A stretch of DNA of 64,000 bases from Psammoneis japonica (GCA_008632985.1 QPGO01000026.1:62001-126000); one strand, 5' to 3'. Counted from the first letter of the stretch, positions 7,300 through 40,918 are shown. A program made the numbers and translations. Notes: a model not told the origin generated them from the sequence alone.

Positions 7300-9640
7300 A
7301 CACTCACGAGCAAACAAAGCACACACGCGCTGAGCACGATGATGCATTGAGCGCACTTGACACGGCACTGGATGAAGTCGAGCCAGAACACTCTGACAAC
7401 TCACGATCGCAAATCACAAAACACTTGCTGCATCTCATTTGTTCTTCGATTCACGAATGAAGATGGGCCCACACAGTCAACAAAGAAGCAAGTGCTTTTC
7501 TCCAATTCATTTCGCAAACAACAAATGAGAGGCAGACAATGCAAGAATGGTGCTTGGCATTGTTTCTCTTGTTCCACCACTTTGTGTTTGCTGCGCCCTT
7601 GTGGCTCCAGTCCAGTTTTGGTCTGCTTGCAAGTGATGATGAGATTGCAGTTGGAACTGGCAGCTGTGATGGTTTGACAATGTGCACCTTGACACCAGCA
7701 GAAAGGCCAAGGTTTTGGCAACAAGAAGTCATGCAAAGGGCAGGTGATTGCATGCTCCTGCAGGAGATGGGGTGACTGTGCCCTGAGCTCCCCCAAAGGC
7801 TGCAAGCAAACTGAGTTTTGCAGACCAACATGTGTCAAGACAGAGGGGGTGGTTGGCAAGTGATTGTCAGAGCTTCTGCCCTGAAAAAAGGGCTCTCTTC
7901 AAAAGCAGTGCAGTGCTTGAAATGTTGCCAGGTTCAGGCATGTGCTTGTGCAGCAGAGTGAGCTCCTTGGCAATGTGCTCTTCTGAAAAAGCAGCACAAC
8001 ACTGCCCTTGCTTTGGGTGCATTTAGGATCACACAAAATTGTGGCAAATCAAAAGAGTCATGCTGCCACAAGCAAGACTCATGGACTTGGGGGACTCTTG
8101 CTGACTGCTGTGCACATGACTCAGTGTCAGCCATGACAACGGTGGAAATGGCAACCTTTCCGATCTCAGCTTGCATCATGGTCAAGGCATGCAAAAAATT
8201 GGTCATGCATGCACAAAAGTGCAGTGCTGTTTTGTTGCCCAGAATGTGTGGAAAAACGATGCCAGGTTGATGGGCTGAGAACCAAATGAGTCATGATGGG
8301 ACGAGGAGTTGCGGCACACAGAAGAACATGTGACAACATGAGATCACAAACTGTCAGAGGAGTTGCTGAAAGTGACATGCATGTGAGACTTCTTCCCACA
8401 AACTGGTCACTGTCAGATGACATGAGCGCTGGCAAGAAAAAGCAAGAGAAGCAGATCTCAAGTGAGGAGACCCACTTGTCCATTTGAGATGTGGTTTGTC
8501 AGCAGCTGCCCACACACAGTCTGGCCATGGCACACACACCTTGGGTGTGCTGACAAGTGCCCAGGCTGGCAGCTGCAACAGTGCTTGTGAGCACTGTGAA
8601 GAATTTGCCAGCCAGCATTGCAAGAAAAAAGGCAAACTTTGTAAAATTTGCAGCACTTGAAATGTTGGGAGAGTTGCAAAATCCCATCTCAAAGATGGAC
8701 TGGCCATTTAGAGGGACGATTCTTGAGAAAGTGGTGTGCAAACTGTGCACCCATTTGCCAGCATTAAATGCAGCAATGTTGGCTGGCAAACAATCGCTCT
8801 GCATCACATGCACCAACAGGCAACTGTTGCACAGCTTTTGGAGCATGATGGTGAGAAAAATGCAGATGACAGATGATTCTAACACCAAGACAGCATCAAC
8901 TGCATGTGAGTGACAATGCTTTCTGCTGACTTGTGCAGAGTTGATCAGAGCTTCTGGGTGTGCACACAAACTCCAAGCTGGGGGTGGGCAAACACAAAAC
9001 AAGCATCTTGAGAACAGCACACATTTCTTCCAAGTTTTCAAGGAGCTCCATGTTCTTTGCAAATTTAGAAACTTCCAAGGGTGGCTGCAAAGCACCAAGC
9101 AGCTGCCAGAAAGCACACGCGCCTCATGAGCTGTCACAAAACCATCGCCTCAGAATTGGAAAATGGTGGGCACACACAGGCACACATTTTTGATCATTGA
9201 ATGCCACCACCACCTTTTGCCTGCAGGCCAGTTGCAGTTGGTTAATTGGCTGTAGCGGCAACTAAGAGCTGCTTGTCAGCTCAGCTTTGTTTCTGCACAC
9301 ACCCCTCATGCACGGGGGGCGGGGCGGGAGAGAGCTCCACATTTTGTTCTCTTTTCACAAAAAAGCAAACACTCCCACTCATGCACAAGCTTTTGCAGCA
9401 AGCACCCAGCACTTGTTTGCCTTGTGCGAAAAGCCACATGTTTTGTGCCACGCGAAGATGACCTGCACAACTTTCATCCACAAGCCCTTGGCTCTCCGGA
9501 GCAACACTTTGTTGTGTCTCCCAGAAAGTTTGGCTGTCAAACAACATCAGCCAATGGGGCTTCTGATGCAAAATCTGCGCAAATGCACACACACCCTCTC
9601 GTGGCACCTGTGCAACTTTGAGTTCGCAAGAAAATTGCAG
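7300..9640. repeat. Degenerate TpA/CpG-depleted repeat domain, probably a decayed coding element
   Basis: Abrupt compositional switch at both ends. Tyr-free, Cys/His-rich ORF fragments. Family not recognised. Confidence 0.65.
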
Positions 9641-11969: not shown

Positions 11970-14880
11970 GCAAGTGCAGCAGTCTTGTTCTCTCCAAGCT
12001 TCTTCACTTTCTCGTTGCAGTCATGCAACTTGACCTTGCACTCACACTCAAGTTGCCTTTCTTCTTGCACTCTTTTGTCTGATGTGGTCTGGCAACCGGC
12101 ATCACCTGGTGCTGGCACCACTGTCTTTGGCATTGCTGATGTGGGGCTCTCACCAGAGAAATCCTTGCATGCCATGTCTTCTAGAGAGATCTTGCCAGAC
12201 ACATGCTCTGATCATGCTTTTTCTGCACATGTGTGGTGATGATGTTCTTCTTGACATCTTCAAATGTTGCATCATGTGAGTTTCTGTTCATTGATGATGG
12301 ATGAAACTTCATCTCTGGCTCGAAGCTCTTTTTTGAGCCAGCCTTCTTGTTCTTGTTGTAGAAAGACTCATGGCCTCTGCCAACCCCTTTCCTGTCTTGG
12401 TCATGTCCTCAGCCTTCAGCACTCTTGTCCCACCCAATCCTCTGCCACTCACAATGCAGACTTCCTGTGTCAGATGATTGTGTGGAGGTCAGTGCTGCAC
12501 ACACCAAATGCAGTGCTTGTGACTCTCTGGAGTGAATGTTGAACCGACAAGTCAATGTTGCCCAAAGGGAATCCTGCAAGGTTTCCTGCACTGCTCATTG
12601 CACTTGTCCTGATTTCTGTGGCAACTGTGGTTTGCCTGGAAGTCCTCCAAGAACTTCAATCCAGTGACACCCACTGGTGCCACAAAACACAATTTGTGGA
12701 AACCAGATGATTCTTCACTCCAAAGTGTGAGACAAAATGAGGTTGGTGAGATTGGCAAAGAATGTGTTTTTATTTCCAAGGTGGCACCAGATCCATCACA
12801 TCAGCAGTCTGAGTGTCTTCTTCTCTTCAACAATTCCATGTCTGTGGGGGGTTCTTGCATTTTCTGCTTGTTCTAGAGCTGCAACACGGGCAACTTGGCA
12901 AGTTGACAAAAAAGCATGCTTGGGCGTCAGAGCATCTGATGCAGGGCTCTTTTGCCAACTGAGCCTCCACCCAGAAAACAAACAGACAAGTGATTGCTCC
13001 TTGAAGTTGGGTCTTGTCTCACCACACACATCTGATCAGAAGCCAGTGTGGTGCCGCAAGTTGCCCAAAATGAAAGCTGCACGCCACATGCACTCTCATC
13101 ATGTGAAAAAGGTTTTCAGCATGGATGGCAGGGTGGGCAACCCAGCTGGAAAAAGATTTGCAAGCTTGCTTTCTTGTTGCTTTTTACCCCAACATGAGCA
13201 GGGGCTTGTTGGGCACCAACAGAGAGCTGCAAGAAAAGAGCTTTGCAGTTTGTGCACCAGAGTTGTTCTGAGTTTGGATTTGTTTCTTTCTTGCAAGGCC
13301 TCCTGGCACCTTGCTCTGGCCTCAGGTTGTGAAACGCATTTGCACAATTGTGCATGGGACATGGGCCTCAGTCACCAACAAACAATGAACAGCGCTGCAG
13401 TGTTCAGAACACCTTCTCTTCATTGTTGTCAGTTCGTGCAAACACACACAACGAGTGTGTTCCTCTGTGTGCTGCAACCCTCATTGCCACCTGCAATGCG
13501 TGCCAAATTTCGGAAAGCAGCCACACATGGCAGATGTGCAAGAAAGTGCTGCCGCACCTGGATCAATGTCACATTGCAGCAAGCTGGTGCAGGAAACCTT
13601 GTGAAGAGGAAATGTTTTGGGTGCAACTTGGCAAAGATGCTCTGTTGTGGAAAAAAAGCAGGGGAGCCAATGTGACTCATCTTGCACACCCAGTGCGGAA
13701 AGATGGATGGCAGAAAACTGGCCAGCCAAGTGAGAGTCATGGTCAGACACAGATCAGGCCACACACAAGAGCAGTTGGCATTGGCAAAGACACCTCTGAC
13801 ATGGACAGATCATAGACCCCAAAAGCAGCAAGCCTGCAAACCTCCCAATGTCTTCACAAGATGGTTTGTGAAGCCCTGTGTTGCCCCAGCAACTTTTGCA
13901 AACAATGGCAGCACCAGCACACCCCCCCCTCCTCCCACCACATCCCCCCAAGTCTGGCAAGGTTGGCACAACCAAAGAACAGGGCAAGACCTCTTCTGAA
14001 CAGAAAAAGAGGCACACAGCATTGTGATGCTCTCATGAGAGTTCACAAAAAGGAACCTGGCCACATGACCCAAAAAAGATGGGTGCCTCTGATGATGATG
14101 GCATCTCATCATCCAAGGTGCCCTGCGTGGAAACTCCACAGAAAAATCTCATCAGGCCAGTGCACAATGCATGCAGCAATGGGATCACCACAAAACAATG
14201 GCATTGTCAGCCAAATGTTTGGCACAGTGCCTTGTGATGATGGCCAATGCCATCCACTCCAAGACATTCTCAGACACACACACACACACACAAGACTTGT
14301 TTTGTGGGCTGGTCCAAGGACCAAAAAGGTGTGCTGGACATGCAGCCAGCAAAAACGAAGGTTTTGCCACTTTTGCAACAACTGCGCCGCATGCTGCAGC
14401 TCAGTGCAATTTCTTCAGCTCATCAAGAACTTTGTTCCTGGAAAGTCCTTCCACATCATCACAGTGCTTGGCATCATGTCATGTGCAGTGTTTGGCTCAA
14501 GTGCGTCGACGCAATTGTGAGCAGCATTTGTGGCCATGGCCGATCTGCTGCTGTGGTGTGGGCAGTGGTGTTTTGTGAGCGATCGAGCATGCCTTGTGCA
14601 CGAAAAGCAACAAGCGACATGCAGTTTGCAGTGACTGATTGGGTGCATTTTTCATCAATGCATTTGCAGCAGCACGCCTGGTGGTCAGATGACAGCCAAG
14701 TCCATTTTTCAAAAGTTGTGAGAACTGGCAGTTTTTCAGTGCACAATTTTGGTAATTTCGTCAGGGGTCATTTTCGAAATGTTCCTGCTGTTTGGGTGTC
14801 ACCACTTGCAAGGAGAGCTGCAGTGGCAACTTGTCTGTGCGGTCTCCGCACTCACATTTTGCACTTTCATCCGTCCCCCC
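11970..14880. repeat. Degenerate TpA/CpG-depleted repeat domain including a retroelement gag-like remnant (-, ~11970-12202)
   Basis: Compositional switch. ECECKVKLHDCNEKVKKLGENK resembles an LTR-element gag coiled coil with Y->C/H. Ends with the dispersed repeat also seen at ~1880. Confidence 0.6.
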
Positions 14881-15496
14881 GCACCACCTTTTGGCCCGAT
14901 CCACGATGAGCCATCACCGCCAGCGTCTCTTGGCAATGCCGACTTTGCGCAGGCGACATTCACACACAGAAGAAGATGATGATTGTTACGTGAAGATTTG
15001 AATCAACATTCGTTTCATCATGATGCAGATCAAATTATTGCTGCACCGCCCGGTGATGTTCGTATCTGAGCCTGTGATGTTCGAGTCTTGTTGAGGGCGT
15101 TGGATCGTGCTGGCTGTGCAGGCGTCATGATTATTTGAATCCGTCTTGCTAGCTAGAGCTACATTAGAGTAGGTATGTACCGGTAGTCGCGCTGCAGTTG
15201 CTCGTATCATAGTTCAAATTCGTTTGGCGGTTGAAAGATTGCATGCGCCATTGAGACTATTCATACGTGAACTTCGCCGGCAAGTGGCAACGGACAACGG
15301 CGATGCCTCCTTTTTGTCATTGGGCGGGTTCAGGGTGTTGCGATTTGCGATCCGCAGTTTTTTTTGTTCTTCCAACCGTCACTTTTGCCGCGGTCGTGCC
15401 ACACAAAGAAGTTCATTTCAGCACAAGCCGACCTATTCGCGCCGTAGGGCCCTTCTGTACCGGGTAGACACATAAAAGAGAAAAACTCAAACTATC

Positions 15497-22899: not shown

Positions 22900-23451
22900 G
22901 TGTAAAACCAAAGGGCAAGTCACGAACGCAATCATGAAGAGCCACCGCGACCTACCTGGCGTTTGTGACAATATTCATATTTTCATGGCATTGCATCAAC
23001 GTATTCATATTTGGATGTTTTGCAATAACGCCGAACTTCCAACTCTTCATTCGCCCAACAATCGCTACCATCAGATCTGAAGATACAACATATGATCCAA
23101 GATTCGAACCCCGTGTGCGATGCTCAGTCTCGAATCCCGCGGAAGCCGAGTCACGAATGCGATGTTTGTTCCCAGCTTCGCGCTTGTTTAACTTCGCGTT
23201 TCTTTTAGATGGCAGCTGCATCTGCTCATAAAAACTGCTCATAATCTTTCTAACGTGCTGATTATCACCTCTCAACTTTTGGTGCAATAAAGTTACTGAT
23301 TGATTGTTGTGTCGCAATCACAGCTTTCAATCACTGAAAGTGCGCACGAATCCCAGAATTCCGGCCACTTTCCCACACGCTTCCTCTGCGAAATCTACAA
23401 GTTAAGTCAATCGATCTTAAGCTCTCGATTCTACTTTACTCTGCTGCTGCT

Positions 23452-24969
23452 ATGGTCACGCAGACACGAAACGCGGCTGCTCCAGCTGCCTCTGCTGCAG
23501 CTCCTGCTGCAGCACCTGCTGCAGCTCCCACTGCTGCTGCTCCCGCAGCAGCACCTGTTGCTCCTCCAGCCGCTCCAGTTGCTCCTGCCCTCCCTCTAGT
23601 TGTTCCTCCAGTCATCCCTCCTGGTGTGCCTCCAGGAGGAGGTGGGGGAGGAGGTGGAGGAGGAGGCGGAGGTGGAATCCCACCAGGTGGAGTTCCGCCA
23701 GGTGGACCACCATTGGCACCTGTGCCACCACTGCCGATCTTCGCCTTGACCCCAGGTCAACACCGTCCCAACAATTTCATCGACTGCGGCACATCGCAAG
23801 GCCTCAAGCTTTGGAACGCCGCTGCTGCTCCGCTGCCGCACGAGTTCAACGGTGATTCAGAAGGTCTCAAACGGTTTTGTGAGACGCTCAGTCAAAGAGC
23901 TGCCGAAGCAGGATGGAAAACAGGGGCAGGAGACACACTTGCCATTCCCGACGCAAATGGCACTCCACGAGATCTCATCTCAGAGCATGGACTGCTCACC
24001 CTTCAGGATGTAAGAACCCATGCGAACACCTTCGCGAATCCACCTGCGCGACAGGCACAGAACAATGTGCAGATGGCCGAGGCCATCTCTCAATCCCTTA
24101 CGGAAGAAGCAAGAGACAAGATGCTGGCTGAGATAGATTCCCACACGATCAACGGGAATCAAATCGGCACACTCTTCTTCAAGCTGCTTGCCCAGAAGGC
24201 CATCGTTGACACCCGATCTGCCACCAACTGCTTCCGCGAGAACCTCTCAAGCCTGGACACGCACATGGCGGCTGTCAACTCGGACATCGAAGAGTTTGAC
24301 AAGTACGCCAAACTCAACGTCGATGGACTCCTGGCCAGAGGAGAGCAGTGCGACGACCTTGTCATGAATTTGTTCAAAGGATGCGCCGCTGCTGCAGACG
24401 AGGTCTTCGTCAAGCATGTCATGTCACACAAGGACAGATGCGACGATGGTGAGGATTTCACACTGACTCAAATCATGACGTTGGCATTGAACAAGTGTGC
24501 TAACCTCAAACGCGAGAAGAGATGGGGAGCACTGTCACCGGCTGAAGAGCAAATCGTCGCGCTTGCAGCCAAGGCAGACTCTGTCAAGGATCAGAACCTT
24601 CAGCTGTCCAAAGCATTGAAGGCCAAGGCTGGTTCTACCAAAGAAAGAAGCACACGGTCAAGGAGGCCCAAGACTGCTCCACGTCAGAAACAGAAGGCGG
24701 ACGAGGCCTGGAAGAAAGTCCCGCCTAAGGAGGATGCTCCTAAGAAGACAGTGAACGGTCATCAGCACTGTCACAAATGCGTCAACAATCGCAACTGTCA
24801 CTGGTGTCCATGTCACACCGCTTGGGTCATTCACTTGCCTGACGATCCGGGCAGCCAAGGCTGTAGACTCCGCAAGCAACAGTCTGCTCCATCCATGGAC
24901 ACATCGGACAAGAAAGTCTCCTTCGCAAGTGCTGTCTCTGCCATCCTAAATGAAGTGGATCAAGAGTGA
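23452..24969 (+). pseudogene. gag: Copia gag with Ala/Pro/Gly-rich N-terminus and zinc-knuckle-like HWCPCH..W
   Basis: LFFKLL..KAIVDTR, NLFKGC, CHWCPCHTAWVIH. Only one Tyr in 505 aa. Confidence 0.85.
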
Positions 24970-25380
24970 CTGCTCCACAGGTTCACTCTGACACTGCTGC
25001 TGTCTTTACAGATGGCCATCACTGTGTCAGTGCTCCTGATGGCGGTCGCTGGCGTCATGAAATGTGCAGCACCGATCTGGATCATACTGCCATTCATGAT
25101 GCCATCCCTTCCTTCAGAAAAGTGTAAGCGCCTGTCACATGCCGTGATGACGCCAGGTGAGTGGGTTATCTCACACATCCTGGCTGAACTGGGCACAAGA
25201 CGAGTTAAGACTCACCAGCGACGGCCAACGACAAGGTGCTGCGCACGGTGTCACACGTCGACGAGGCCAGGTCACCGCTCCAGAGTGGCCACCAAGAAGG
25301 CTCACCATGTCATCACGTGATGCAAGACGGTTAGGGCGTACAATTCAACCACTCCATGCCGTCCCAATCAAACGGAACCC

Positions 25381-28300
25381 ACTTACGATTCGGATTCATT
25401 CGCAATCGGTGTCGACTCGCATTCTTCCTGCACCATGTCTAACGACGAGGCACACTTTGTTGGTCCGATCAGAAAAACAAATGAGGTGGCACTTGGTGTC
25501 AAGGGCTGCTTGCGTGCCAAGGGAGAAGGAACAGTGCAGTGGGCAATTGAGGACGACATGGGACGAGTGCATAGCATCAAAATTCGAGATGCGCTGCTCG
25601 CACCGGACTTACCTCATTGTCTTCTCTGCCCGCAGCAATGGAGTCAACAAGCTAATGACCATGCGCCAGAGCCTCACGGAACTGTGTCCTGGACCAGGGA
25701 CGACGGACTGTCACTGATGTGGGACCAGCGCAAGTGTCATCGCCTGATTCCATGGTCCGCCAACTCTAATGTCGCCAAGATGCGCTCCGCACCCGGTTCC
25801 AACAAATGCCGGACCTTTGCAGCCGCTGTCGAAGAACAAACCGATGTCGAAACTGTCGAGCACGTGGCCTGTCAAGCTCACATCATACCACCAGACGACG
25901 AGAGCATTGCGAATGATGACGAGGCTGCAATTGACACAGACGTCTTCAGAAGTCCATCCGAGACACGTCCTTCTGAGACGCAAGACGCACGCAACACTGC
26001 TGATGAGGGTGCTCCTGTCTCATTTGAGCCAACAGACAGAGCAAGTTGTTCAGACTCAGACGAGGAAAACCCAAGGGATTTCACAACACCGGAGGCACAG
26101 CAGGACTCACCGGAACCCATCAACATTGTGCCAAATGATGACGCCCTTGCTGCCACTGATGACCAGGGTGAACTGTTGCGTTGGCATTGCCGCCTGGGCC
26201 ACATGTCATTCAAAATGACAAAGCCATTGGCCGCCCCAGGCATTCCACCGAAACGCCTTACAAAGGCACACAACCCAAAATGTGCCGGCTGCCTGTGTGG
26301 TGCCATGACAAAATGACCGTGGCACTCCAAGTCCAAGCGGAACCGACGAATCCACTTGGCAACTTCGCCTGGAGAGGCCGCATCCGTCGACCAGCTTGAG
26401 AGTCCTGCTCCTGGACTCATCCCACAGCTTAAAGGGAGGCCTACGAAACAAAGGTGTCAAGCAGCGACAATTTTTGTTGATCATTTCAGCAGATTGGGGT
26501 GCACAAATTTGCAGAAAGGACTTGCCTCAGCCGAGACGCTCGACGCCAAGCACGCTTTTGAGGCATTCGCATGCCGGATGCACGTCCGCATTCGACACTG
26601 CCACACCGACAATGGAAGATTTGCTGACAATGCTTTCATGCAAGACGTCAAGAAGCAACAGCAAACAATGTCTCATTGTGGGGTCAACGCCCACTTCCAA
26701 AACGGCATTGCGGAGAAGAGAACAAGGGACCTCCAAGAGCAATCTCGGAAGCAACTCCTGCATGCAAAGGTGAGATGGCCAACGGCTGTTGAGTTAAATT
26801 TGTGGCCAAGCGCTCTCAGGAATTCAAATGAGATCAAGAATCACTTGCCGAATCACGAAGACGGTTCCTCTCCGTTGGAGCGTTTCTCGTCTGTCAAGGT
26901 CCAACCCAATCTCAAGCAACATCATGCCTTCGGCTGTCCAGTCTACGCCTTGCACACAATCGGTTGCAGGGAGGAGGCAGGCCACCTGAGTGGGACCCAA
27001 GAGCAAGGTTAGGAATCAATTTGGGGCCATCAACAAGACACGCAGGTTCAGTTGCCTTGGTCCTCAACTTACAGACTGGACTCGCATCGCCACAGTTCCA
27101 CGTGCAATTCGATGATTTCTTTGAGACTGTTCGTCCTTCTGCTGGGAATCCTCCTACATTCTCACAATGGCAAGGCATTGCAGGTTTCAGGCAACTCAAG
27201 ACAAGGAGTGCTTTCAACATCTTTGGGAGATCAAATGACGCACTGGTTGAGGGATCAATCCCTGCTGTTTCGGAGCCACCTGAGCTGAATCCGGATGTCC
27301 CGTCTCAGCTGCTGCATCCTGCTGACACAACAACTGCTGATGACTCATTTGACAACACCCAACCGGATGATGAAGTCCCACACACGCCTCCAGATGATTC
27401 TGACGCACCATCTGAGCCACAGCGCACCATGGGTCAACCCAGTGCCAGCAGGTCCGGCCGACAACGATGCCCAACCGAAAGGATGCGCGAGAGCCAATTG
27501 CAACGGGCTCAAGGCATAGTCTCCTACAATGCAGAGGCAGAGGCACATTGTGACGCAATGCACGAGGATGATTACAAACTGCAGGATGACATGGACTCAC
27601 CCATCTCTTTTCTGGCGAGCTCGGACCCCGACACCATGCACTTTGACCAGGCTGTGCGTGAACCTGACAGAGACGAGTTTGTCAAAGCCTGTGTTAAAGA
27701 GGTCAATGATCACATTGAAAGAAAGCATTGGATGCTTATTCCAAGAGAGGACGCACCTGATGATGTTGATGTTCTCCCTTCAGTGTGGTCCATGAAGCGC
27801 AAAAGAGACATCAAGACTCAAGCCGTCTACAAATGGAAGTCCCGACTCAATGTGCACGGTGGAAAGCAAGAGCATGCTGTCAACTGCTTCCAGACCTGCT
27901 CTGCCGTGGTCTTCTGGTTCACCATCCGGCTCCCACTGATCACAGCCATTCTCAAGAAGTGGCACACACGCCAAGTTGACTTCGTTCTGGCGCATCCGCA
28001 TGCCGATGTTGAACATGACATGTGCATGGAGTTGCCTGCAGGAATTGAAACAAAATGTGGCAATGGCAAGACTCATGTTCTGAAGTTGCTCAAGAACTCA
28101 CATGGACAGAAGCAAGCAGGGAGAGCATGGCAAGAACACTTACGTGATGGATTGTTAAGGATTGGTTTTGTTCAATCGGCGGTTGATGAGTGCCTGTGTT
28201 TTCGCGGCAATGTCATTTTCATTCATTGTGTCGATGACGGCATCTTTGCATCCCCTGACAAGTCTGCCATTGACAAGGCGATGCAGGGTGTCAGAGATGA

Positions 28301-29231
28301 GAATTTTGACATTGATGATCAAGGCACTCTGGACGACTATCTCGGTGTCAATGTCGAGACGCTGCCTGACGGCAGAATGAAACTTGCCCAACCTCACCTT
28401 GTCAATCAGACACTGGAGATGGCCAACATTCCCAAGAGACCACCAGACAAGTCTGCTCCTGCTCCTTCTTTCAAGATCCTCCACAGGCACATGAGTGAGC
28501 CTGCTTTCCAAGGGAGCTTTCATTACCGATCCATCATCGGCAAGCTCAATTTTCTGGAGAAAAGCACTCGACCGGATGTCGCCTACGCGGTGCACCAAGT
28601 CGCACGTTTTTCCTCCGATCCCAAGATTTCTCACGGTGAAGCTGTACTATGGCTCTGTAAGTACCTAAGGTCAACCAGAACTGAAGGTATTATACTACAG
28701 CCCTCAACGGACAAGTCCCTTGAAGTTCACGCTAACGCGGACTTTGTGGGCAATTGGAACAAGCTAACAGCACCCGATGACGTTGGCACTTCCAAATCTC
28801 GAACTGGGTTTGTCATCACCTACGCAGGATGTCCGATTGTATGGACGTCCAAGCTACAGACTCAGATCGCGCTCAGCACTACTGAAGCTGAATTTATCGC
28901 TCTTTCGGAAAGTCTTCGAAGCGCCATCCCAATTATGAACCTCATTCAAGAGTTTATGGGTCATGGTCATAATGTCCCTTCCGAGACACCAGTCGTACAC
29001 TGTAAGGCTTTTGAAGACAATTCTGGAGCACTGGAGATCGCGAGATTGCCTAAGATGCGTCCTCGGACAAAACACTTCAACCTCACTCTCCACCACTTTA
29101 AAGACCATGTTCGCAAAGGTCTCATATCAATCCCACCAATTGATACGGCAGATCAGATTGCAGACATTTTCACCAAACCTCTACCACAGAACCTCTTCGT
29201 TAAACACAGGAAAGCGCTCCTTAAGTGGTAA
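25381..29231 (+). pseudogene. pol: Copia pol (protease, integrase, RT, RNase H) with a TGA at 26314 and a frameshift at ~26960
   Basis: DSDSFAIGVDS, WHCRLGH, DNGRF..QNGIAEK, HGQKQAGRAW, CVDDGI (from YVDD), STTEAEF, QIADIFTK. Confidence 0.95.
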
Positions 29232-30974
29232 GACGTTTTCGAGTCATCATTCCACCCGACGTTATTGAAGGGAGTGTGACAATATTCATATTTTCATGGC
29301 ATTGCATCAACGTATTCATATTTGGATGTTTTGCAATAACGCCGAACTTCCAACTCTTCATTCGCCCAACAATCGCTACCATCAGATCTGAAGATACAAC
29401 ATATGATCCAAGATTCAAACCCCGTGTGCGATGCTCAGTCTCGAATCCCGCGGAAGCCGAGTCACGAATGCGATGTTTGTTCCCAGCTTCGCGCTTGTTT
29501 AACTTCGCGTTTCTTTTAGATGGCAGCTGCATCTGCTCATAAAAACTGCTCATAATCTTTCTAACGTGCTGATTATCACCTCTCAACTTTTGGTACAATA
29601 AAGTTACTGATTGATTGTTGTGTCGCAATCACAGCTTTTAATCACTGAAAGTGCAGACGAATCCCAGAATTCCGGCTGCTTTCCCACAGCGTTTTGTCAT
29701 GCCTGATGGCGACGACGACGACAAGGACTCCACCACGGCAGCGACTGAAATGGCTTTCATCATGTCAAACTTTCTGGTCAATGCACGACCAAGGCAGGCA
29801 GGCGCCTTTTTTGTGAGAGCAGAATCACAACCCACATGATGCAAAAAGGATGCGAGTGGGAGCTTCCAAGAACACCAACGTGTCACTGCTCCATCCATGG
29901 CGCGTTGTCGGTTGTTGCTTGTGAAAAAAGTGCGGGATGCCACGTCATTCGTCACACCCAACATGGACAGACGGACGGCAGCGAACTGGGTCGGTCATGC
30001 CAGCCATTCTCGAGTTTCGTCAATTGACCAGTTGCCGATTCAGAGCAAGTTGCAGGTAAGACTTTTTGCAATGACAGAGGTTTTGCCTTTCAAATGCCAA
30101 GTGGTTGTGCTCTGGATCCAATGGCCAGGGAACGAGGAGGAAATGTGCTGGTGGGTCGGCGCGATTTGCTGAAGAAGAAGGTGCGCCAGAGTGACGTGGG
30201 CAAAGAAGGAGGGGGGCAGCAGAGGGAGGTGACAGGCATGGTCATGATGCAGTGGATGTTGGCTGGTTGATTGTGGAAATCTTTTGAAACAAAAAATGAG
30301 AAAGAGGGGCAATGGGTGAGCAGCAGCTGCTGAAATGTGGCAGCTCAAAGTCAAAAGGACAAAACACAAGGGAGCACCAGGGTGAGGACAAAAATGCATT
30401 GCACAGAAGACACAGCAGAAGGCACCTGCAGCAAACACAGCTTTTGCATCAGAAAAAACCAGTGCTGTGGCTGGCACAAACTGCAATTTTTGGAAAGTTT
30501 TGAGTGCCACAAGAGTTGTGCCGTGTCAAAAGGTGAAGTCAATTCACAAAGATTGTTGCATTGAAAGCAGTGTGAAATGAAGAGCAAGTGAGGGGCTCAC
30601 TGGGGTGAAAGAGAAGTCCCAGCTCTGCAACTTCCTTGACAGGATGAGCTGGTGAACACATGTTTTGCACCAGTGGACTCAATTTTGGCATCCAAGCAGC
30701 TGAGAAAAGCAATTTCAAGGTGCAACTTTGAGATGAAATGGTTGACTTTTTCAGGATTTTTCTTCACCCAGTTTGTGCTTTGACATGGGTGCCATGAACA
30801 ACAGGCAGGTGCCAACAAGCCACACACACTGGCTTGCTCTTGAAAGAGCTGCAGCCACAACCCAATGGAGCCACACAACAGCTCCCAGAAGCAGACCTCT
30901 TGCTTGAAACATGACCACTGCCAAGATGTGTTTGCACGCAAAGAACAAGAAAGCTCATTTCCACAGCTGCTTGC

Positions 30975-31287
30975 AAAGCTGGGTTCATGATGAGTGACAA
31001 AGGGGGCATGCTTCACACCAGCATGAGCAAAAAGTTGTTGGAGACAACTTGGGCTGGGATTTGTGTGCACATTGTTGAAAAAATGGAGCAGGAGCACCAA
31101 ATCAAAAGAGAGCAAGAAGGGTGATGCAACAAAGCTGGGTTCATGATGAGCAACAAAGGAGGCATGCTTCACACCAGCATGAGCAAAAAGTTGTTGGAGA
31201 CAACTTGGGCTGGGATTTGTGTGCACATTGTTGAAAAAATGGAGCAGGAGCACCAAATCAAAAGAGAGCAAGAAGGGTGATGCAAAG
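30975..31287 (+). repeat. Tandem duplication with a ~156-bp unit
   Basis: aaagctgggttcatgatgag...caagaagggtgatgcaa occurs twice in a row. Confidence 0.9.
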
Positions 31288-34200
31288 GCATGTGTGCTCC
31301 ACTGGGGGTGTGCAAAGCAGGACAGCTTGCTCCAGACCACACTGAGAGTTCACATTCAAGCCCATGGTTGTGTCACCTGCAAGGAGTGTGTGACACAAAG
31401 TGTCTTCCCATGCAGGGCAGTGCTGCTGCAGAAGCATCATCTGCAACATTTTGCACACAAGCTGGCCAATTTCAAGACCCATGAGTGTGTTGCCAGGGCA
31501 GATGACTGCCCCCTTAGCTTCCACCTGTGATGGAAGGTGGAGACACACCAGAGTCACAGCCCAATGATGAGCTGCACAACTTGCTTGAGTGTGGTGTATC
31601 AAGCACATGGCAGAAGCACATGGCACCACAGGACTTTGACCCATTGGCATGCACTGCAGCCAAAATGTGCTCCATCAGCCCTGGCTGGGACTCTGTGTGA
31701 CATTTGCGTGCAGAGTTCTGTGCATGAGCTTCACAGCAAAATCACCAGGTGGTGAACATGCCAGTTGTTGCCAACAGAAAAAGAGGCAGTTTTGTGATTG
31801 CATCTCTTCTTTCATTCTTGGGGTGCATTGTTTCCAGTTTGCCAGGGTGCACTCTTTGCAGACATCAAAGAATGGGCCCAGCTAATTTTTGCTTTCACAA
31901 ATGGGCACAATGAAAATCCTTTGGCTTCACAAAGCAGGGAGTGTGGGGAACAATTTTGTGGAATGATGCATGTGTAGAGATGCACAGTCCAGAGCTGGAG
32001 TTTGTCCCAAATTTGTTGCACTCTGCAAACAAGTCAAGCATGTCAAGGAAGGATGCAGAAGGCATTCTGGTCCAAAGCACCAAGGCTCCACACAAGCAGG
32101 GCTGCAGCCCAGACTCAATGAATCAGCACGGTGGTTGTGTCAAAGTGGGAGAGTTAATTGTGAGGCTGCAATTGTCCAAAAAGTGCAGTGCACCTGCTAA
32201 TTTTGTTCTGTTTTCAACTTTTTCAACAAGTGATGTTATCATGGTGAATCAATCACTGTGAATCTCTCTTGAAGGTTCAAGGCAACAGCTTTGCATTTTT
32301 GCCTCTTTTGTGTGCATCAGCTTCAACACAGCAGATGGGTGTCTGCATGTCATTTTGGTTGTTGCCTGCACTTGGAAACACTTCTTCCAGACACACACAT
32401 GGATGATGACAAATTTCCTTTTGAATCCTGTGTGCATTTGAATGCATCTTTGCACTGACCCAAACTTCAATGGACACTTGTGACTCCAATCTTTGGGAAT
32501 CCAGCAGTTTGAAAAGAATGATCTGGGGAATGTGTCTGGACAGCTGCTGTTCAAATGAATTCTGTCCATCTGTGCATTTGGGGCATCTGTGAGTGCAGCA
32601 GTTTCAAAGGATAAAAAAGATGCAAGGGCAGAGTCAAGCATGTGGCTCAAGGAAGTTAGACAAGGCTGACCAAGTCATGTGTGCACATCATTCCTCAAAA
32701 TAGATGAGAATTGGAGTGGCTTGCCAGGCTGTTGCTGATCCTTTCAACAATGCAAATGCCAGTGCCATCTGCCAGTCTTTTCCATCACATGGAAATGGCT
32801 TTTGTTGCTCATTTGAAGCTGGCCAGCCAGTTGCAAGATGAAAAAATGGATGTTGCATTGATGCCACAATTCAATGCTCATTTTTGCTCTCTGTCCCAAT
32901 CCAATTGCACTGCACTTTTGTTTTGGCATCTCACCCATTTTGTTTGACACACTTGTCTTTGTCACTTAGAGAGGACATTGAGCAATGTGTCACCCCCAAG
33001 GATGAACAATGGCTGACCATTTCATTTTGACATTCTTCATCGTGTTGGAAAGGGGCTGTGAGTGTGGCATGCCATGCACTCCTTTTTGGTCCAAACCAAG
33101 CAAGACACAATTGATGCTGTCACCAATGATGACAGTTTCAATGTGCAATGGGAGGGCATTGACATGTCCATGACCTTGCCAAGTGCCAGTTGGCAGTGCT
33201 CTCCCTCATTCAGGGGCCAAAAACTGGGGCAACTCTTGGTGACATGGCAAGCATGCAATTGGAGCATGTGAACAAGGAGGCTGAAATGTTGTGCGGACAA
33301 CTCTCAAGGCTGTGCCAAAGAAAGGCATGTTTGCATTGGTTCAAAGTGACATTGATGCATCACACATCTGCAGCATCTGTGTGTGACAAGCAAACCAGCA
33401 ATTTCTGCTCTCAATCTCTGTCTTTCCTGTCAAGGTGGTGTCTTGGTTTTTGTTTCTGGTGGCCTTTGGATCTGCAGAGAAGGACAGGAACAACTTGCAC
33501 CTCATCAAGCCAGGGTTGTCATCAGCTCACAATTTGTGGTGATGATGTGTCAGCGAGTTGCACAAACTGAAGACACACCTCACAACATGCCAGCACCCCA
33601 AGATGCACCTCTGCTCATTTTGTGTTTCCTCTGCAAGACAAACAAGAAACCCTGAGAACTTTTGTTGTTTTCAGCAAAGTCATTGATCTGTCATGGTCAA
33701 GCAGATTGTGGATAAAAACAAGCAACAACATTGATGGGAGTCAGTGCATCCATGGCAAGTGGAGCCAGACCAACACCTCCATTGTCATCTGATGTCAACT
33801 GTCTGACAGTGTGCTTTTGTGCAAACACTTCTCATGTTGCTCTCACTGCTTTCTTCTGATTCTTCTTGGTCATTCAATCCATGTTGAGTGGATGGAACAG
33901 GCTTGGATGGGGCACCACTGCTTGCATTGTGCATTGTCCATGGCGGCTTCAATGAAGCCAACCCATTTTGCACTTTCTGCTGACCACAATGCAGGGTGTC
34001 ACATGGCAACTCAACCAAAGCTTTGCCCAGACACGTGCAGCAGAAGAGATGATGACTGTGCAGGAGGTGACACCATTGTTCTTGTTTTTGATCTTTGTGA
34101 CATGAACTTTGGTTCCATCGACTGGGTCTTTCAGGTGAGAGCCATGTTTGGGATGCTTTTTCAGCTCACCACTCATTTTTTGTTGCAACAGCTTCATTGA

Positions 34201-35908
34201 CACCCCAGAGCTATGAACCCATTGACCAATTAGAGGCACTGACCCAATGCTCAACAAGAGACAATGTGCTGTGTGGTTTCATTATGCCATTGAATGCTTC
34301 TTGTGTCATGCACTGCTTTGGCACCATTTTAAAGAAAAAACTGCTGCACCTGATGCACAAGAAAAGCAGATTGGCTGCATGCAGGTCAATCACAAATGCC
34401 AATTGGGTGCAACAGATGTTGTCAGCAGCAAAAAGTGTTGGTGCTGGCATGCCATCATTGCACTGGCCAGCATTTTTTCCTGCGGTGTGGTGTGATGCAA
34501 CCTGGTCTCTGGCATTCCCACAATTCTTCTGAGTGCCCCAATCTCACTGATTGACAGACTGTTCCAGCACAAACCCCATTTTTTGTGCAAGATTGTTCAC
34601 ACAGCAGCTGTCCAGACATGTTCATCATAGAACCCCGCAAACATGTGGGGACCCACAACCTGGAAATGTGCAGAGTTGTGCGTGCATGCATTGGAGCTGT
34701 TTATGCAGGTTTTGCACCAGAGTGTGTTGTGAACTGCTGGCGGGCATTTTTTTTAAATTTTGTCATGGCAACAGAGACTCCAAACTCTCTGGTGCTTTGT
34801 TGGCCCCAGGCAGAAACAGCACCATGCCCTGTGCAATGTTCAGTCAATGAAACCAAAAAAAGTGCAAGAAGTGTGCCATGATTTTGAGGCCATTGCAATT
34901 GACACCACACCCGAGTTCACATTGAAAACAATGCTCAAGGGTGGCATCAAAATGTTCATCAAAAAAGGCTTGGTTGTGTGGGGAGGTTTCAGAGGTGCTG
35001 TGCAATGGTGCAGGTCAACATGGGCTCACAATCTGACAGAGACTCCAATGTGACCTCTTCCACTGACATGCAGAAACTGTGCCAGTTTTGTGCAGGCATG
35101 CTGAGTGTTTCAGCACCACATGCAAAAATGAGCATGGACCTCTGCAGGAGGGTCCCCACACATTTGCAGGGTGACACAATGAACAAGTCATGATTGCAAT
35201 GTCATCTGGTTGCAGAACATGACTGCAACTCAGACTCATTGATTCATTTGGCCATTCACTGAAATCGCTGTTTGTGGATTGCAATTGACTTTTGCCACAA
35301 TTTCTGGAACAGCAGCAACAACAACAACAACAACAACAACAACAACCACTGTTTTGCCTCTTTGTTGTTGCTGCCATCCACCCTTTGAGGGGACTTTTGA
35401 TTGTGTGTCAACCTCAGCACAGTCTTTCAACTCTGATTGTTGAGACCATCAATTCATGCATTGGCACTAAGCTCTCAGTCAAGTTGTTGCCACAGACATT
35501 TCCTCTGATGGAAACACAGCTGATTTCAAATCACCCATCCCATTTTCACAACCAAGAGAACCGTGGCTCCTCCTGCCACACCACCACCTCCTCCAAGAAC
35601 CCTGGCAATGGGCACTGCACCAAATGTCAGGTTGAAGGAGGAGGAATTCATGAAGATTTTCTCCAGCATCAGAACCCAGGGACAATCACCTCCAACACCA
35701 CCCAAATGAGGCAGAATCCCTTGAACTCATGGTGCACATGTTGGAAGATCTCTCCTTGATGATGACTGGAAGCAGACAGATTCACATGCACATCGTTTTG
35801 CATCACAGCATTGACACCCCAAGGCTCTCAATTCAACCAAGTGCTCTCTCCAAGATCAACAAGCTTCTGCAATGACCTCCAAACAACTTCAACAGCAGAC
35901 TCAAGATT

Positions 35909-36650
35909 TTGAATGGTCCCATCAACAAATTAGACAAGGACCACTTTGTCAAGAGCATCCAAGACCCAGTGGAGGCTCACAGACATGAGATGTTCTGTCA
36001 TGCAAAGAAATCAGACAGAAAGGTCATCCATGTCTTTGATCATCTACACAAGTTTTTGGCAACAGATCTCCCTGCTGAGAGCGACACTTGCAAGTTGGAC
36101 ATTGATGACTCAGCCTGCAACAAGACAGAGCTCCATGACATTGGCCTTTCTCAGCTTCCAGTTTTACATGGAGTCACAAATGCCTTTGGCAAGAAAATGA
36201 AGACCAAGTTCAACCACTTGAAGGATTTCAAGAACTGTCCTGAATCCGTTCTGTTCATGATGGCACTCAACACATGCAACACCAGTGCTCCAGCTGACAT
36301 TGAGACTGCCAAGAAGGAGCTGGAGGATCTTGCTTTGGCCACCTGCCTGGGAGAAGACTGTGCCAACTTCACTGCTGAAGGTCTGTGGATCATCAAGGTC
36401 CTGCAGATGGACTGCACACTCCCAGTCAATGCTGGATCCAAGCTCTTGCACAAGGCATCCAATGCATCTTTGGAACACTTCAATCGCCTTGTGCACAACA
36501 AGATTGATGATGTCAAGAAGATGGAGTGCAAGTGTGGGCTCAAGGACCCCATGGAAATCAAGTCCAATGCTGCCTGTGCCAACCTGGGCCAACTTGGCAT
36601 CATCACATGGATCCAAAAGCAGCACTCCCTCAGAGCAACCTGTCATCATC
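35909..36650 (+). pseudogene. Decayed diatom copia gag-like fragment
   Basis: VLFMMALNTCN..DIETAKKELEDL.LATCLGEDC..F...LPVNAGSKLL resembles CoDi gag (YPGE->CLGE). No Tyr. Confidence 0.6.
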
Positions 36651-37852
36651 TGACAACCCAACCAACATGTTGTTGGGGATGTGGTCTTGAAGGCTGCACC
36701 AAAAATCCCAAACACCCCAAGAAGTCATGTGCAACTGCATGGCAAACTGCCTGCATTGGGGAGACCACTGCCAAGGACCCAAGTTGCTTGAAGTTTCAGC
36801 GGGGGAGTCTGACAGGACTGTTGTTGATGGTGTTGAAGAAGGCCCATCACTCCATGTTGATGAAGGAATGTCCCATGGAAGAGCACTTGGTGCACCCACT
36901 GGCACACCACTGGGAACCACTGATGGTGAGAGGGAAGGTCTCTCAGATGGTGAAACAGACGGTGCATCACTGGGGCTGGCAGCACTCAGCATCAAAAAGA
37001 CAATGTCTCTGACGGACTGGTGCTGGGGACACACGTTGGGCCTTCACTTGGCATTTAAATGGCAGAATCACTGGGGTTGAAACTCAGCATCAAAGATGGC
37101 ATCTCTGATGGATGAGTGCTGGGGACACCCATTGGAGATCTTCACTTGGCATCAAAGAGGGAGAATCAGCTGGCATGACACTTGGCTCTGTTGTTGGTGA
37201 CACCAGTTGGATCTTCACTTGGCATTGCAGAGGGAGAATCTGATGGCATTGCACTTGGCACATCTGTTGGGGCTTCACTGGGTGGGACTGAAAGTTTTTG
37301 TGATGGCACATCACTGGGCACCAATGATGGCGCACCCAATGGCACAATGCTTGGGCTGGCACACTTGTTGGAGCATCACTGGGAGCATCACTGGGAACTG
37401 ATGAAGGACTTTCTGATGGTGCAGCACCGGGTGCAAAGGATGGCGCAGCAGACGGCACAACACTCAGCATGTTTGCTGGAGATTTGCTGGGTGACAAACA
37501 GGGCTCATCACTGGGGCTGCCACTTGGCACCAATGATGGTGTCTCAGATGGTGCAACACTTGGCACATTCATTGGTGCCTCACTGGGTGATGATGATGGT
37601 TCATCGCTTGGGCTGCCACTTGGCATTGATGATGGCATCTCAGATGGCTCAAGGCTTGGTGCTTGCATTTGGCATCGCAGAGGGTGAATCAGATGGCACA
37701 AGACTTGGCACATCTGTTGGAGCTTTGCTGGGAACCAATGAAGGAGTTTCTGATGGCACAATGCCAGGTGTCAAGGATGGTGCAGTGGACGGCACAACAC
37801 TTGACATGTCTGTTGGAGATTTGCTGCTGGGCAACAAACAAGTGCAACACAC
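36630..37852 (-). pseudogene. Fragmented mucin-like (PSxx)n repeat gene remnant
   Basis: PSDAPSVSPSERPSLSPS and PSEMPSSMPSGSPSDEPS broken across several frames. Confidence 0.65.
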
Positions 37853-38487: not shown

Positions 38488-39360
38488 TCACAGTGTCTTT
38501 TGTTTCTTGGCAGATGCAACAGTTTCAGGACTTAGGTGTTCTTCATTCCTTTCGAAAGCATCAAGCAACTTGTGAACATGTTTGCAGTTGACACCCAGAA
38601 AGTATGCTGGCTGCTGCTTCGCAACATCCAAGGGAGTTTCAGCAAAATGCGATTCATGCAGTGGATCTATGTTCTCCTGTCTGAGCAAGAAATCTGCGCT
38701 TTCCACTTTACCCGCAAGTGTGGCAAGGTGCAGAGGCATCTCTCCATCGAAGTCAACTGCGCTTACATCTGCACCATTTTCTATGAGTGTTCGCATTGCT
38801 CCAATGCTGCCAGCACTGGCAGCAAGGTGAAGGGGTGTCTGACCTGAGGTCCCTTGCATTTGTGAGCTGTTTTGCTTCAACCACGGACACTGCTTGAGAA
38901 CATGCTGGATGGCCTCTTTGTCATCAAGACATGCAGCGTTTCGGAGCACAGGTCCTGCACCAGCTGAGCGGAGCTTCTTTGTAATTTGCTGGCCCAACTT
39001 CGATTCCGAATCCATTTTCGACATTTGATCCTGAAATTCCTCACTGAAACACTTTGCCGTCTCAACATCCAAGTTAACCAGATCCTTGGCAAAGTCAATG
39101 TCGAACAGCCCAAACTCCCAGCTTCCGACAGAGAATGGATGAACCAAGGAGATCACTCCAGTTTCACACACAATGTCAATCGACTTGTTTCCGGCAATGG
39201 AATTCTTTAAATCAAGCAGAGGCCCGCCTTGCATCTTTCCTGAATAGACTGTGCACTCACAATCTTCCATCTGCTCTTCCCAGTGTTTCGGGTCAGAGCA
39301 ATGATCTTGCTGGAGCCTCATCGACAATGGATGTGTCAAAAGAGGGGCTGTGTCAGGCAT
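38488..39360 (-). pseudogene. Ankyrin-repeat protein, 5'-truncated by the copia fragment
   Basis: GQTPLHLAASAG...GADVSAVDFDGEMPLHLA...ETPLDVA. Abuts copia sequence at ~39360. Confidence 0.75.
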
Positions 39361-39361
39361 T

Positions 39362-40918
39362 GTTCACACTCTCCCCAACCATCCCATCCTGTCTATGTTG
39401 CTGCAGACGAAGCATGCGCGACATGGCACAAGGCTCGGTTTGGCATCGATTTGGACAGGAGCATGGCACTTCCGATGCAACATGCACTTCAAGGACACCC
39501 AGAAGCCGGCGTGCTCTGGGAGACGCACATCAACGGCATTTTGTCCGATGTGAACTTACTTTTTCGCAACACTGCTCATGACAAATGCATCTGTTCTGCT
39601 GCTTGTGAAGGACACAAGATCTTGCTCCTCCGTCAGGTTGATGATTTCTCCATTGCATGTCCTGAAGAGTCCCTTGCGATCAAGACCTGCGACAAGATTG
39701 GCAAAGCTCTCCAATTGGAATCGGAGACTTCTCCACCTTTCAAGTGTCTTGGCGTGATTGAAGAATTCAATGGTGTGGATGTTCTTCAATGTGATGATTC
39801 CATTGGTGTTGCTGTCCACAGTTGTGTTGATCGGGTTTGCACCTTGCATGGATGGTCGACACCGACAGACGAGGAACTCAAAGAGATGAACACAAGGCCA
39901 CACCAATCCCGGTTGATTCCATTTGTGACCTGCACACTGCCATTGGTCCAGCTGAAGGAACCCCAGAGCATGCGGAGTTGCAACAAGCTGCTGGCTTTGG
40001 GTGCCGCACTCTACTTGGTGAATTGTTGCATGCGTGCATTGTCTGTCGATTGGATGTTGGGTGTGCTGTCACTGCTCTCTCCAAGTTCTCTACCTGTCCT
40101 GCTGTGGTTCACTGTGACGCGCTCAAAGGAGTCTGCAAGTGCCTTCAACGCACCAAGCATTGGGAATTGAACTGCAAGAAGCCCACCCAAGACTCAAGAC
40201 TGCCTGCCTGCCCCTTTGAACGCCTCTCTCCGGACCCAACCCTACCACCATTCCCTTTCCCTGAATGTGATCATCAACTCGTTGCTTTCTTGGATGCTGC
40301 GCATGGCAATGACCTCCGCAACCGTTGCTCTACGACCGGCTGTGCTTGCATGTTTGCTGGCGCTGCCATGTCTTTTTGATGCAAGACCCAATTGGTGCTG
40401 CTGCGAGTTCTACGGAAGCTGAATTCTGTGCGGCTGGCACTGCTGCCAAGCATGTCCTTTGCCTTTGTCACATCCTGTGTGACCTGGGCTTCCCTCAGAC
40501 GAAGCCAACCCCGTTGTGCATTGACAACAAATTGGTATCAAGATCATCAATCATTCGATCCCAACCGAGCACTCCCGTCACATTGAGACTCAGTTTTTTG
40601 CGATCCAAGAATGGAAGGAAGCGGGCAAGATTGTCACAAGACATGTCCCTGGCATTGTCAACCCCAGCAATGACCTCACCAAGGCCCTTGGGTGGGTGCC
40701 ACACGCTCGCCATGCTCAACGCATGATGGGACACTGCTGTTGACATTTTTTCTGCGGTGGCCTCCCTGCTGCGCATTGCCCCCTTGTTTGATTGTGCATT
40801 GGGCATGGACACTTGTCGTGTCCTGTGTCTAGTCTCTCTGTTTTTCCTCACATCATCCCTGTTCTTTGGTTTGATGTGCACCATTCTCTGTGTTGAGATG
40901 TTGCAAATCAGGGGAGGG
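39362..40918 (+). mobile_element. Partial duplicate of the copia RT/RNase H 3' region (copy of ~46390-47948)
   Basis: Near-identical sequence including the PPT ggggaggg, running directly into the LTR at 40919. Confidence 0.92.

Follow-up and report, generated by a model that had tools for sequence, protein, structure and literature searches.

Results

The 64,000-nt stretch of the Psammoneis japonica genome analysed here (GCA_008632985.1, QPGO01000026.1:62001-126000; hereafter the window, with positions counted from its first letter) contains a complete, young Ty1/copia retrotransposon with long terminal repeats (LTRs), termed element 1, whose interior has lost most of its TpA dinucleotides. 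An earlier note, made from the sequence alone, had flagged this interior because conserved tyrosines were replaced by Cys or His, and had read it as a repeat-targeted mutation of TpA to TpG or CpA. Element 1 has LTRs of the TG..CA type, a 5-bp target-site duplication (TSD), a purine tract, gag, and an integrase encoded before the reverse transcriptase (RT; RVT_2), as is typical of Ty1/copia elements (Table 1). More than 380 full-length relatives are found in public protein sets. The depletion extends well beyond this element: sharply bounded blocks with a TpA observed/expected ratio (O/E) of 0.03-0.13 make up 32,295 of the 64,000 nt, lying between normal stretches, and two of them are copia elements. 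Block boundaries were set at 500-nt resolution.

Table 1. Coordinates of element 1 and of the other features of the window (ORF, open reading frame; ratios are O/E).
Feature	Position	Strand	Remarks
Depleted blocks 1-2324 and 2848-4103	1..4103		TpA 0.03-0.04, CpG 0.14-0.22
Depleted block	7248..8730		TpA 0.03, CpG 0.28
Depleted block	12091..14982		TpA 0.04, CpG 0.23
5' TSD of element 1, GCGTT	22959..22963		identical 5-mer at 29689-29693
5' LTR, 414 nt, TG..CA	22964..23377	+	16 TpA, not TpA-depleted
gag ORF from ATG, 505 aa	23452..24969	+	1 Tyr
TpA-depleted zone of element 1	23452..28524		TpA 0.155, CpG 0.67, TpG 1.57, CpA 1.45
Protease/integrase part	25321..27012	+	two frames (25321-26316, 26317-27012); gag_pre-integrs and Pol_BBD (Pfam)
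ORF of integrase C-terminal part, RT and RNase H, 799 aa	26832..29231	+	RVT_2 (Pfam); catalytic YVDD reads CVDD
Undepleted 3' end of pol and purine tract	28525..29274	+	purine tract GAAGGGAG directly before 3' LTR
3' LTR, 414 nt, TG..CA	29275..29688	+	18 TpA; 7 positions differ from 5' LTR
3' TSD of element 1, GCGTT	29689..29693		
Most extreme block	29745..37801		25 TpA (0.05), CpG 0.12, TpG 1.83, CpA 1.94; no Pfam match
Second, older copia element with upstream partial copy	39133..48746	+	gag_pre-integrs, SH3_retrovirus, weak RVT_2; TpA 0.13, CpG 0.58
Direct duplicate of 46389-48144, 1756 nt	39361..41114	+	97.2% identity
Depleted blocks 54487-59207 and 59508-61305	54487..61305		TpA 0.06-0.07, CpG 0.24-0.45

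Within the depleted zone of element 1 (5073 nt), 42 TpA are observed where 271 are expected (O/E 0.155; CpG O/E 0.67), as opposed to 767 of 1415 expected in 19.8 kb of host stretches (O/E 0.54; CpG O/E 1.0), so that the loss flagged earlier was real and even understated. Both TpG (1.57) and CpA (1.45) are raised in this zone. In the 1651 nt formed by the LTRs, leader and final ~700 nt of pol, 70 of 124 expected TpA are present (O/E 0.57), and the CpG O/E is 1.08. The depletion stops abruptly at ~28524, sparing these parts, while its 5' limit is hard to place, as a GC-rich tract coding for Ala, Pro and Gly occupies 23452-23900. The sharp stop, the spared LTRs and the more extreme blocks elsewhere, which have also lost CpG, had escaped the earlier note.

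The loss of TpA is mirrored in the proteins. We counted a single Tyr in the 505 residues of gag from its ATG, as had been reported, compared with 1.2-4.3% Tyr in ten host ORFs; the adjacent host genes are indeed normal in both Tyr and TpA. We then aligned the four ORF pieces of element 1 to 60 relatives, giving 1332 residue pairs, and used the relatives compared with each other as a control. Where the relative has Tyr, element 1 has Tyr in 13% of cases (control 52%), Cys in 19.7% (1.3%), His in 14.1% (5.0%) and Phe in 16.8% (11.9%), corresponding to a 15-fold excess over control for Cys and a 3-fold excess for His. Conserved Tyr columns were retained in 3 of 15 cases, as against 279 of 359 for other residues (Fisher p 6e-6). 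The 12 Tyr columns in the depleted zone now read C6 H2 L1 R1 F1 Y1, whereas the nine in the undepleted 3' part read F3 Y2 H2 W1 L1; Cys thus stands at 6/12 of the former and 0/9 of the latter (p 0.019). Cys and His dominate the depleted zone as the earlier note had described, although its statement that Tyr was replaced only by these two was too strict.

The direction of the change is given by the relatives, as Tyr is ancestral at the examined columns in 59-60 of them. Tyr-poor relatives also occur in the public protein sets, namely P0121 (1 of 120) and P0241, P0281 and P0313 (3 of 150 cluster representatives). At five RT columns, which include the previously cited NCF, LAHP, DMCMELP, KNSHGQKQ and CVDD and which are Tyr in three to four of four normal relatives, the residues in the order window copy, P0121, P0241 and P0281 are CCHC, HCCF, CHHH, HCCH and CCHC. 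The presence of Cys in some copies and His in others at one column indicates that the same TAY codon was hit on different strands independently, which is what would be expected if TA to TG and TA to CA are a single A:T to G:C change on either strand. The differing mixtures exclude an active family consensus in which Cys or His would simply be the regular residue there. Moreover, all nine related copia loci from metagenomes have a TpA O/E of 0.42-0.86. Three of them (L007, L008 and L009) are strongly depleted in CpG (O/E 0.18-0.39) with TpA near 0.6. The loss of TpA is therefore neither a trait of the lineage nor a by-product of methyl-CpG decay, in agreement with the earlier argument that deamination of 5-methylcytosine cannot account for it.

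Counted in windows of 500 nt, the depletion of TpA and CpG reaches far beyond the stretch flagged earlier. In the most extreme blocks (20.7 kb together), the O/E is 0.045 for TpA and 0.18 for CpG, with TpG and CpA each at ~1.85. Across 128 windows of 500 nt, TpA O/E correlates negatively with TG/CA (rho -0.87), and the losses of TpA and CpG share the same blocks (rho 0.84). Measured against the host O/E, 692 TpA and 985 CpG, 1677 in all, are missing from the extreme blocks, which hold a surplus of 1652 TpG and CpA; the corresponding figures for missing and surplus dinucleotides are 498 and 459 in the second copia element and 225 and 182 in element 1. This balance indicates that the same products arise by two processes, the decay of CpG and a loss of TpA distinct from it, with CpG decay accounting only for the CpG share of the surplus (985/1677). 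Simple repeats were rejected as an explanation of the blocks, since Tandem Repeats Finder gives only 11 small arrays. None of the ORFs of the extreme blocks matched Pfam in a scan of 72 of the 100 ORFs of at least 130 aa, the 28 omitted being overlapping or antisense frames, mostly within the two copia elements. Likewise, a homologue search with a 598-aa ORF containing one Tyr (59360-61153) found none.

The TpA remaining in depleted DNA is not a random sample. YTAR (Y, pyrimidine; R, purine) makes up 35-38% of it (16% in host DNA) and RTAY 8-9% (29%). When the 3' neighbour was counted for each of the two adenines of a TpA, the survival ratios were 0.44 for TAT, 0.81 for TAC, 1.47 for TAA and 1.49 for TAG (chi-square p 6e-13). 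ATAT occurs once as against 61 times in the host set, and TTAA 25 as against 37 times. These ratios suggest that the favoured target is T-A-pyrimidine, in the order TAT > TAC > TAA, TAG. Because Tyr codons always read TAY on the sense strand, such a preference fits the Cys:His ratio of ~2:1 that is left after subtraction of the control. With the undepleted parts of element 1 as the baseline, a fraction of 0.27 of the TpA and 0.62 of the CpG survives in 23452-28524. TpA would thus have been lost ~2.7 times faster than CpG, assuming that both processes lasted equally long.

The two LTRs of a retrotransposon are identical at insertion, and those of element 1 now differ at 7 of 414 positions, corresponding to five events: two TA versus TG/CA, one CG versus CA, one adjacent CA versus TG and one GC versus AG. 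Three to four of these are of the TA type. The 1756-nt duplicate (39361-41114 versus 46389-48144) shows 40 events, comprising 16 CG versus TG/CA, six TA versus TG/CA, six adjacent CA versus TG, four other transitions, seven transversions and one CC versus TT. Events at TA or CG thus account for 28 of 40 in the duplicate and 4 of 5 in the LTR pair. The adjacent CA-versus-TG doubles, seven over both pairs, require an ancestral TA or CG at which each copy took one hit, the two hits falling on opposite strands; they show that the process acts on integrated DNA and on both strands. The doubles and the comparable increases in TpG and CpA argue against RNA or cDNA editing as the main source. A side observation concerns a 156-nt unit in the extreme block, present in two tandem copies of 98% identity (30974-31285), where one of the two differences is an adjacent TG-versus-CA double.

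The LTRs have lost at most 4 of ~38 TpA, as opposed to ~73% in the interior of element 1. Either most of the interior changes predate the insertion or the process is at least 10 times more active on the interior. We consider that the interior was probably mutated for the most part before the present copy was inserted, judging from this contrast. As to how a mutated interior came between intact ends, we prefer to think of a mosaic produced when the template switched from mutated to intact RNA or the reverse, of recombination, or of mobilisation of a mutated template in trans; alternatively, a homology- or chromatin-dependent trigger may cover only the interior. The intact TSD shows that element 1 was inserted exactly at the edge of the most depleted block. 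A model in which the time spent as single-stranded cDNA spares the LTRs and the 3' end, based on the gradients reportedly left by APOBEC3G in human immunodeficiency virus, was rejected, as it predicts a maximum just upstream of the purine tract and changes on one strand only.

To examine whether the pattern is present in read-derived sequence, we compared the window with Logan contigs of the public run X1, whose platform is not on record and which possibly comes from the assembly's own sample. Seven contigs (595-2201 nt, word depth 56-66) span 29659-39480 with 0-1 differences each, reproducing the TpA-free sequence of this region and arguing against the polishing artefact that had been named as a way to refute the claim. 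The exact confirmation applies to 29659-39480; none of the listed contigs was seen to match the interior of element 1 exactly. Of 375 differences between the window and the contigs of this run, 315 are transitions and 37 transversions. Among the 40 differences listed, the window has TG/CA where the contig has TA in 11 cases and the reverse in none (binomial p 0.001), although this asymmetry is partly forced; differences of the CG type run in both directions, six and five.

The same contigs bear on whether repeats as such are the target. In summed word depth, which does not equal copy number, element 1 stands at 10-30 times the flanking old block, implying a multi-copy family, whereas the most depleted 8-kb block has a uniformly low depth. 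Moreover, the DNA targeted in the chlorarachniophyte Bigelowiella natans is single-copy (Mettrop et al., 10.64898/2026.01.13.699255). The targeting of repeats claimed earlier is accordingly best taken as a conjecture.

Several further features lie in or near the depleted DNA. A host-like patch of 540 nt (20122-20657) differs at 10 listed places from the one public-run contig listed for it (depth 135). At nine of these, the window has TG/CA, and the contig has TA (5) or CG (4). The unmutated contig points to another allele or copy that was left unmutated, and the process may leak into low-copy DNA here. A perfect 108-nt inverted repeat (18771-18878 and 22007-22114) encloses ~3.1 kb with four ORFs without a Pfam match, the 540-nt patch among this sequence. 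No target duplication was seen around it, and it could mark the two termini of a DNA transposon or have arisen by inverted duplication; with such a repeat close to the copia element, some of the neighbouring "host genes" may themselves be mobile. The neighbouring glutaredoxin-DEP-DUF547 gene has its best matches, at ~60% identity, in Seminavis, Thalassiosira, Chaetoceros and other diatoms. An ankyrin-repeat ORF on the minus strand (Ank, E 8.5e-13; 38491-39363), situated after the extreme block and before the second copia element, is moderately depleted (TpA O/E ~0.2, Tyr 0.69%) and may be a captured or decaying fragment of a host gene within the mutated domain. Depleted blocks such as 29745-37801 contain 1.4 TAA and 0.8 TAG per kb, as compared with 7.7 and 7.8 in host DNA. 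The removal of these triplets leaves long open frames on both strands, in which gene prediction will probably yield spurious genes.

Discussion

Our results suggest that a diatom mutates transposon-derived, presumably silenced DNA at TpA to TpG or CpA, on top of methyl-CpG decay, by a process of the kind found in B. natans, a reading to which we assign a probability of about 0.6. The pattern itself, as far as it can be read from the sequence, we regard as very probably correct. The changes are specific to one dinucleotide, run in one direction on both strands, arise after integration and duplication, end at sharp limits and are present in read-derived contigs. The claim that they are confined to mobile or silenced DNA beside normal genes also held up, given that the blocks include two copia elements and the host ORFs are normal. 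The interpretation given in the earlier note as a whole is therefore supported in part.

As a mechanism, we propose that silenced chromatin would recruit an adenine deaminase of the TadA/ADAT kind, which would convert TpA to TpG or CpA by A:T to G:C change on either strand and would prefer an A before a pyrimidine. Methyl-CpG decay runs concurrently in the same blocks. Element 1 is a young insertion, the gag-to-RT portion of which carries a heavy load of TpA changes. An enzyme that works on DNA, most likely a polynucleotide adenine deaminase of this kind, would be the agent, but we put the deaminase forward tentatively and at somewhat less than even odds. We infer that the process serves as a genome defence.

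Several observations weigh against this reading. Element 1 is undepleted in its LTRs, its leader and the final ~700 nt of pol even though its 3' LTR adjoins the most depleted block, and a model in which a whole silenced element is mutated in place therefore fails for this copy. Of the 73 conserved residues replaced in the depleted zone, a single TA to TG/CA step explains only 13, the others including 28 transversions and 19 multi-step changes (a comparison of low power), implying that much of the protein divergence is the ordinary divergence of the family. Part of the residual TpA, from which the context preference was derived, may have been newly created rather than have survived. The 11:0 asymmetry between the window and the contigs is in part a consequence of the few TpA left in the window copy. 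Furthermore, X1 is perhaps the source sample of the window, and contigs were compared rather than raw reads. Lastly, the evidence in the window is a historical record in sequence, whereas de novo mutations were measured in B. natans (10.64898/2026.01.13.699255).

Some alternatives are contradicted by the distribution of the changes. An artefact of assembly, base-calling or polishing at modified bases might be suspected from the missing platform records of the assembly and of X1, and from the possibility that X1 is the source of the assembly. However, over 9.3 kb of the most depleted block, contigs at a uniform depth of ~60 agree with the window to within 0-1 differences each, other copies in X1 carry TA where the window copy has TG/CA, and Tyr-poor, Cys/His-rich relatives occur in independent public protein sets, so that we find an artefact hardly credible. 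The idea of an intrinsic composition, in which a functional lineage avoids TpA by selection and genuinely uses Cys and His, draws on the closest relative, P0121, sharing Cys at six Tyr columns including the RT motif, and on the ORFs remaining long. Long ORFs are, however, expected because the loss of TA removes TAA and TAG (3.1 and 2.2 per kb, versus 7.7 and 7.8 in host DNA). Moreover, different copies have Cys or His at the same Tyr column, the 3' part and LTRs of element 1 itself have normal TpA, and blocks without a Pfam-detectable domain are even more depleted; such a lineage is exceedingly improbable. Editing before integration, in which RNA or cDNA of the element is hyperedited by an ADAR-like enzyme on double-stranded RNA or by a cDNA deaminase and then inserted, would account for near-identical LTRs (7/414) that are little affected beside an interior with ~73% of its TpA lost, and ADARs are described as preferring a 5' U (PMC10661471). 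Retro-copying would, on the other hand, transmit edits of the sense strand only, whereas both strands are similarly changed here (TpG 1.57, CpA 1.45; both Cys and His). Both the LTR pair and the 1756-nt duplicate acquired TA-type and CA-versus-TG differences after integration, a pyrimidine is favoured on the 3' side and not the G of the ADAR motif 5'-UAG, and the old blocks without coding signal are the most depleted. We judge editing before integration to be quite unlikely as the source.

The remaining two alternatives are closer to deamination in what they leave behind: as TpA is its own complement, deamination, biased repair and a modified thymine cannot be separated by the sequence alone. 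Under biased repair, a T:G-mismatch glycosylase or a short-patch system that guards CpG-methylated DNA against 5mC deamination would also attack G:T mispairs left by replication at TpA, removing the correct T and thereby fixing A to G. Among T mispairs, thymine DNA glycosylase prefers CpG.T, with TpG.T next, and in E. coli CTAG is depleted by very-short-patch repair. TpA and CpG are lost from the same blocks, as noted above, and CpG methylation of diatom copia elements has been reported (PMC2806351). Nevertheless, a TpA loss ~2.7 times that of CpG in element 1 would be hard to reach by replication errors alone, the metagenomic loci L007-L009 combine strong CpG decay with normal TpA, and the mutations of B. 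natans come in bursts and in some lines only, which suggests a switched activity (10.64898/2026.01.13.699255). We hold biased repair to be unlikely. In the case of a modified thymine, a TET/JBP-type oxidase would make 5-hydroxymethyluracil, or a derivative, at TpA, which would mispair with G and lead to T to C; such a change is indistinguishable from A to G on the opposite strand of a self-complementary dinucleotide. Dinoflagellates replace T by 5-hydroxymethyluracil preferentially at TpA and TpC. We know of no report of a modified T base in diatoms, no dedicated literature search having been made, and the window holds nothing that bears on base modification; we consider this route very unlikely.

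On a more speculative view, taken up again below and less likely than not, the window would record a natural, context-specific A:T to G:C editor of DNA, widespread in the SAR (stramenopile, alveolate and rhizarian) supergroup and with the preference TAT > TAC > TAR (R, purine), by which transposons and integrated viruses are erased without the creation of stop codons. To our knowledge, no cellular system that hypermutates selfish DNA from A:T to G:C was known before 2026. The signature in a diatom would take the process beyond a single species and beyond viral inserts, the single precedent being one preprint on one rhizarian alga (10.64898/2026.01.13.699255). For some species of the diatom group genetic tools exist, and a comparison of species that have the signature with species that lack it could lead to the enzyme, while the context preference can be read from the sequence and used to test candidate enzymes. 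There are also consequences for annotation. As stop codons are removed, dead transposons keep long frames that are likely to be annotated as genes, and the oldest relics escape similarity-based repeat finders, with about half of the window lying in depleted blocks.

Among known systems, fungal repeat-induced point mutation (RIP) likewise places dense transitions in mobile or repeated DNA, inactivating it and leaving its neighbours intact. Its polarity is the opposite, as the earlier note had recognised: RIP changes C:G to T:A mostly at CpA and creates TpA (PMC2621366), whereas TpA is destroyed here (O/E 0.155 in element 1) and CpA and TpG are created. A RIP-type C:G to T:A process was therefore rejected. 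Methyl-CpG decay shares with the TpA loss both the blocks (CpG O/E down to 0.02-0.2) and the products TpG and CpA, and it has evidently taken place here, with a CpG O/E of 0.18 in the extreme blocks and 0.58-0.67 in the copia elements. It is, however, unable to remove TpA, and related copia loci that have decayed at CpG keep theirs.

The attack on mobile elements by ADAR and APOBEC3 is based on deamination, as we propose here. APOBEC gives G to A and not A to G. ADARs act with a 5' U preference and the motif 5'-UAG (PMC10661471, Table 1), but their 3' G contrasts with the 3' pyrimidine preferred here. The substrates of ADAR and APOBEC3 are RNA and single-stranded cDNA, leaving a one-strand signature before integration, unlike the changes on both strands after integration in the window. 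Hyperediting of the ADAR type followed by retrotransposition was rejected on these grounds, TAG and TAA also being the triplets that survive best. TadA, from which DNA base editors have been derived, and ADAT2-ADAT3 are tRNA adenosine deaminases that act on A34 after the conserved U33, that is, in a UpA context. The motif tabulated for TadA/ADAT2 is 5'-ACG, with the substrate given as "RNA, DNA?" (PMC10661471), which overlaps in part with TAC, one of the favoured contexts here. The likeness is incomplete, since TAT is hit more than TAC and a natural action of these enzymes on chromosomal double-stranded DNA is unproven.

The closest counterpart comes from mutation-accumulation lines of B. natans, in which integrated giant-virus and virophage DNA is hypermutated at TpA (Mettrop et al., 10.64898/2026.01.13.699255), so that the earlier statement that no system of this kind had been described is out of date. 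In two integrated viral regions, 230 of 231 mutations were A to G or T to C, all at TpA, at a rate of ~6e-7 per site per generation, in bursts and only in some lines; coding sequences poor in TpA showed an enrichment of reverse transcriptase and DDE domains, and an ADAT2-like enzyme was put forward as a candidate. The main text of the preprint makes no mention of diatoms, CpG or trinucleotide context, and we found no report of TpA-directed mutation in diatoms in the literature, including a term search within PMC2806351 and PMC4504042. In common with B. natans, the window shows changes at TpA only, with the products TpG and CpA on either strand in the A:T to G:C direction, and these changes keep to discrete regions of mobile or foreign DNA, the genes next to which are normal. 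It differs in the host, a diatom (stramenopile) and not a chlorarachniophyte (rhizarian), and in the targets, which are LTR retrotransposons and unidentifiable relics instead of viruses. The depletion is near saturation here (O/E 0.045), compared with a rho of 0.45 in their nucleocytoplasmic large DNA virus (NCLDV) region, and a parallel loss of CpG and a 3'-pyrimidine preference are described here. What appears to be new is the occurrence in a diatom and on retrotransposons, a depletion close to saturation, its coupling with the decay of CpG, and the preference for TAY. It is tempting to speculate that diatoms and chlorarachniophytes share an old chromatin-targeted defence that edits the adenine of TpA, or its paired thymine, faster than methyl-CpG decays, a common origin that we consider possible, if not probable.

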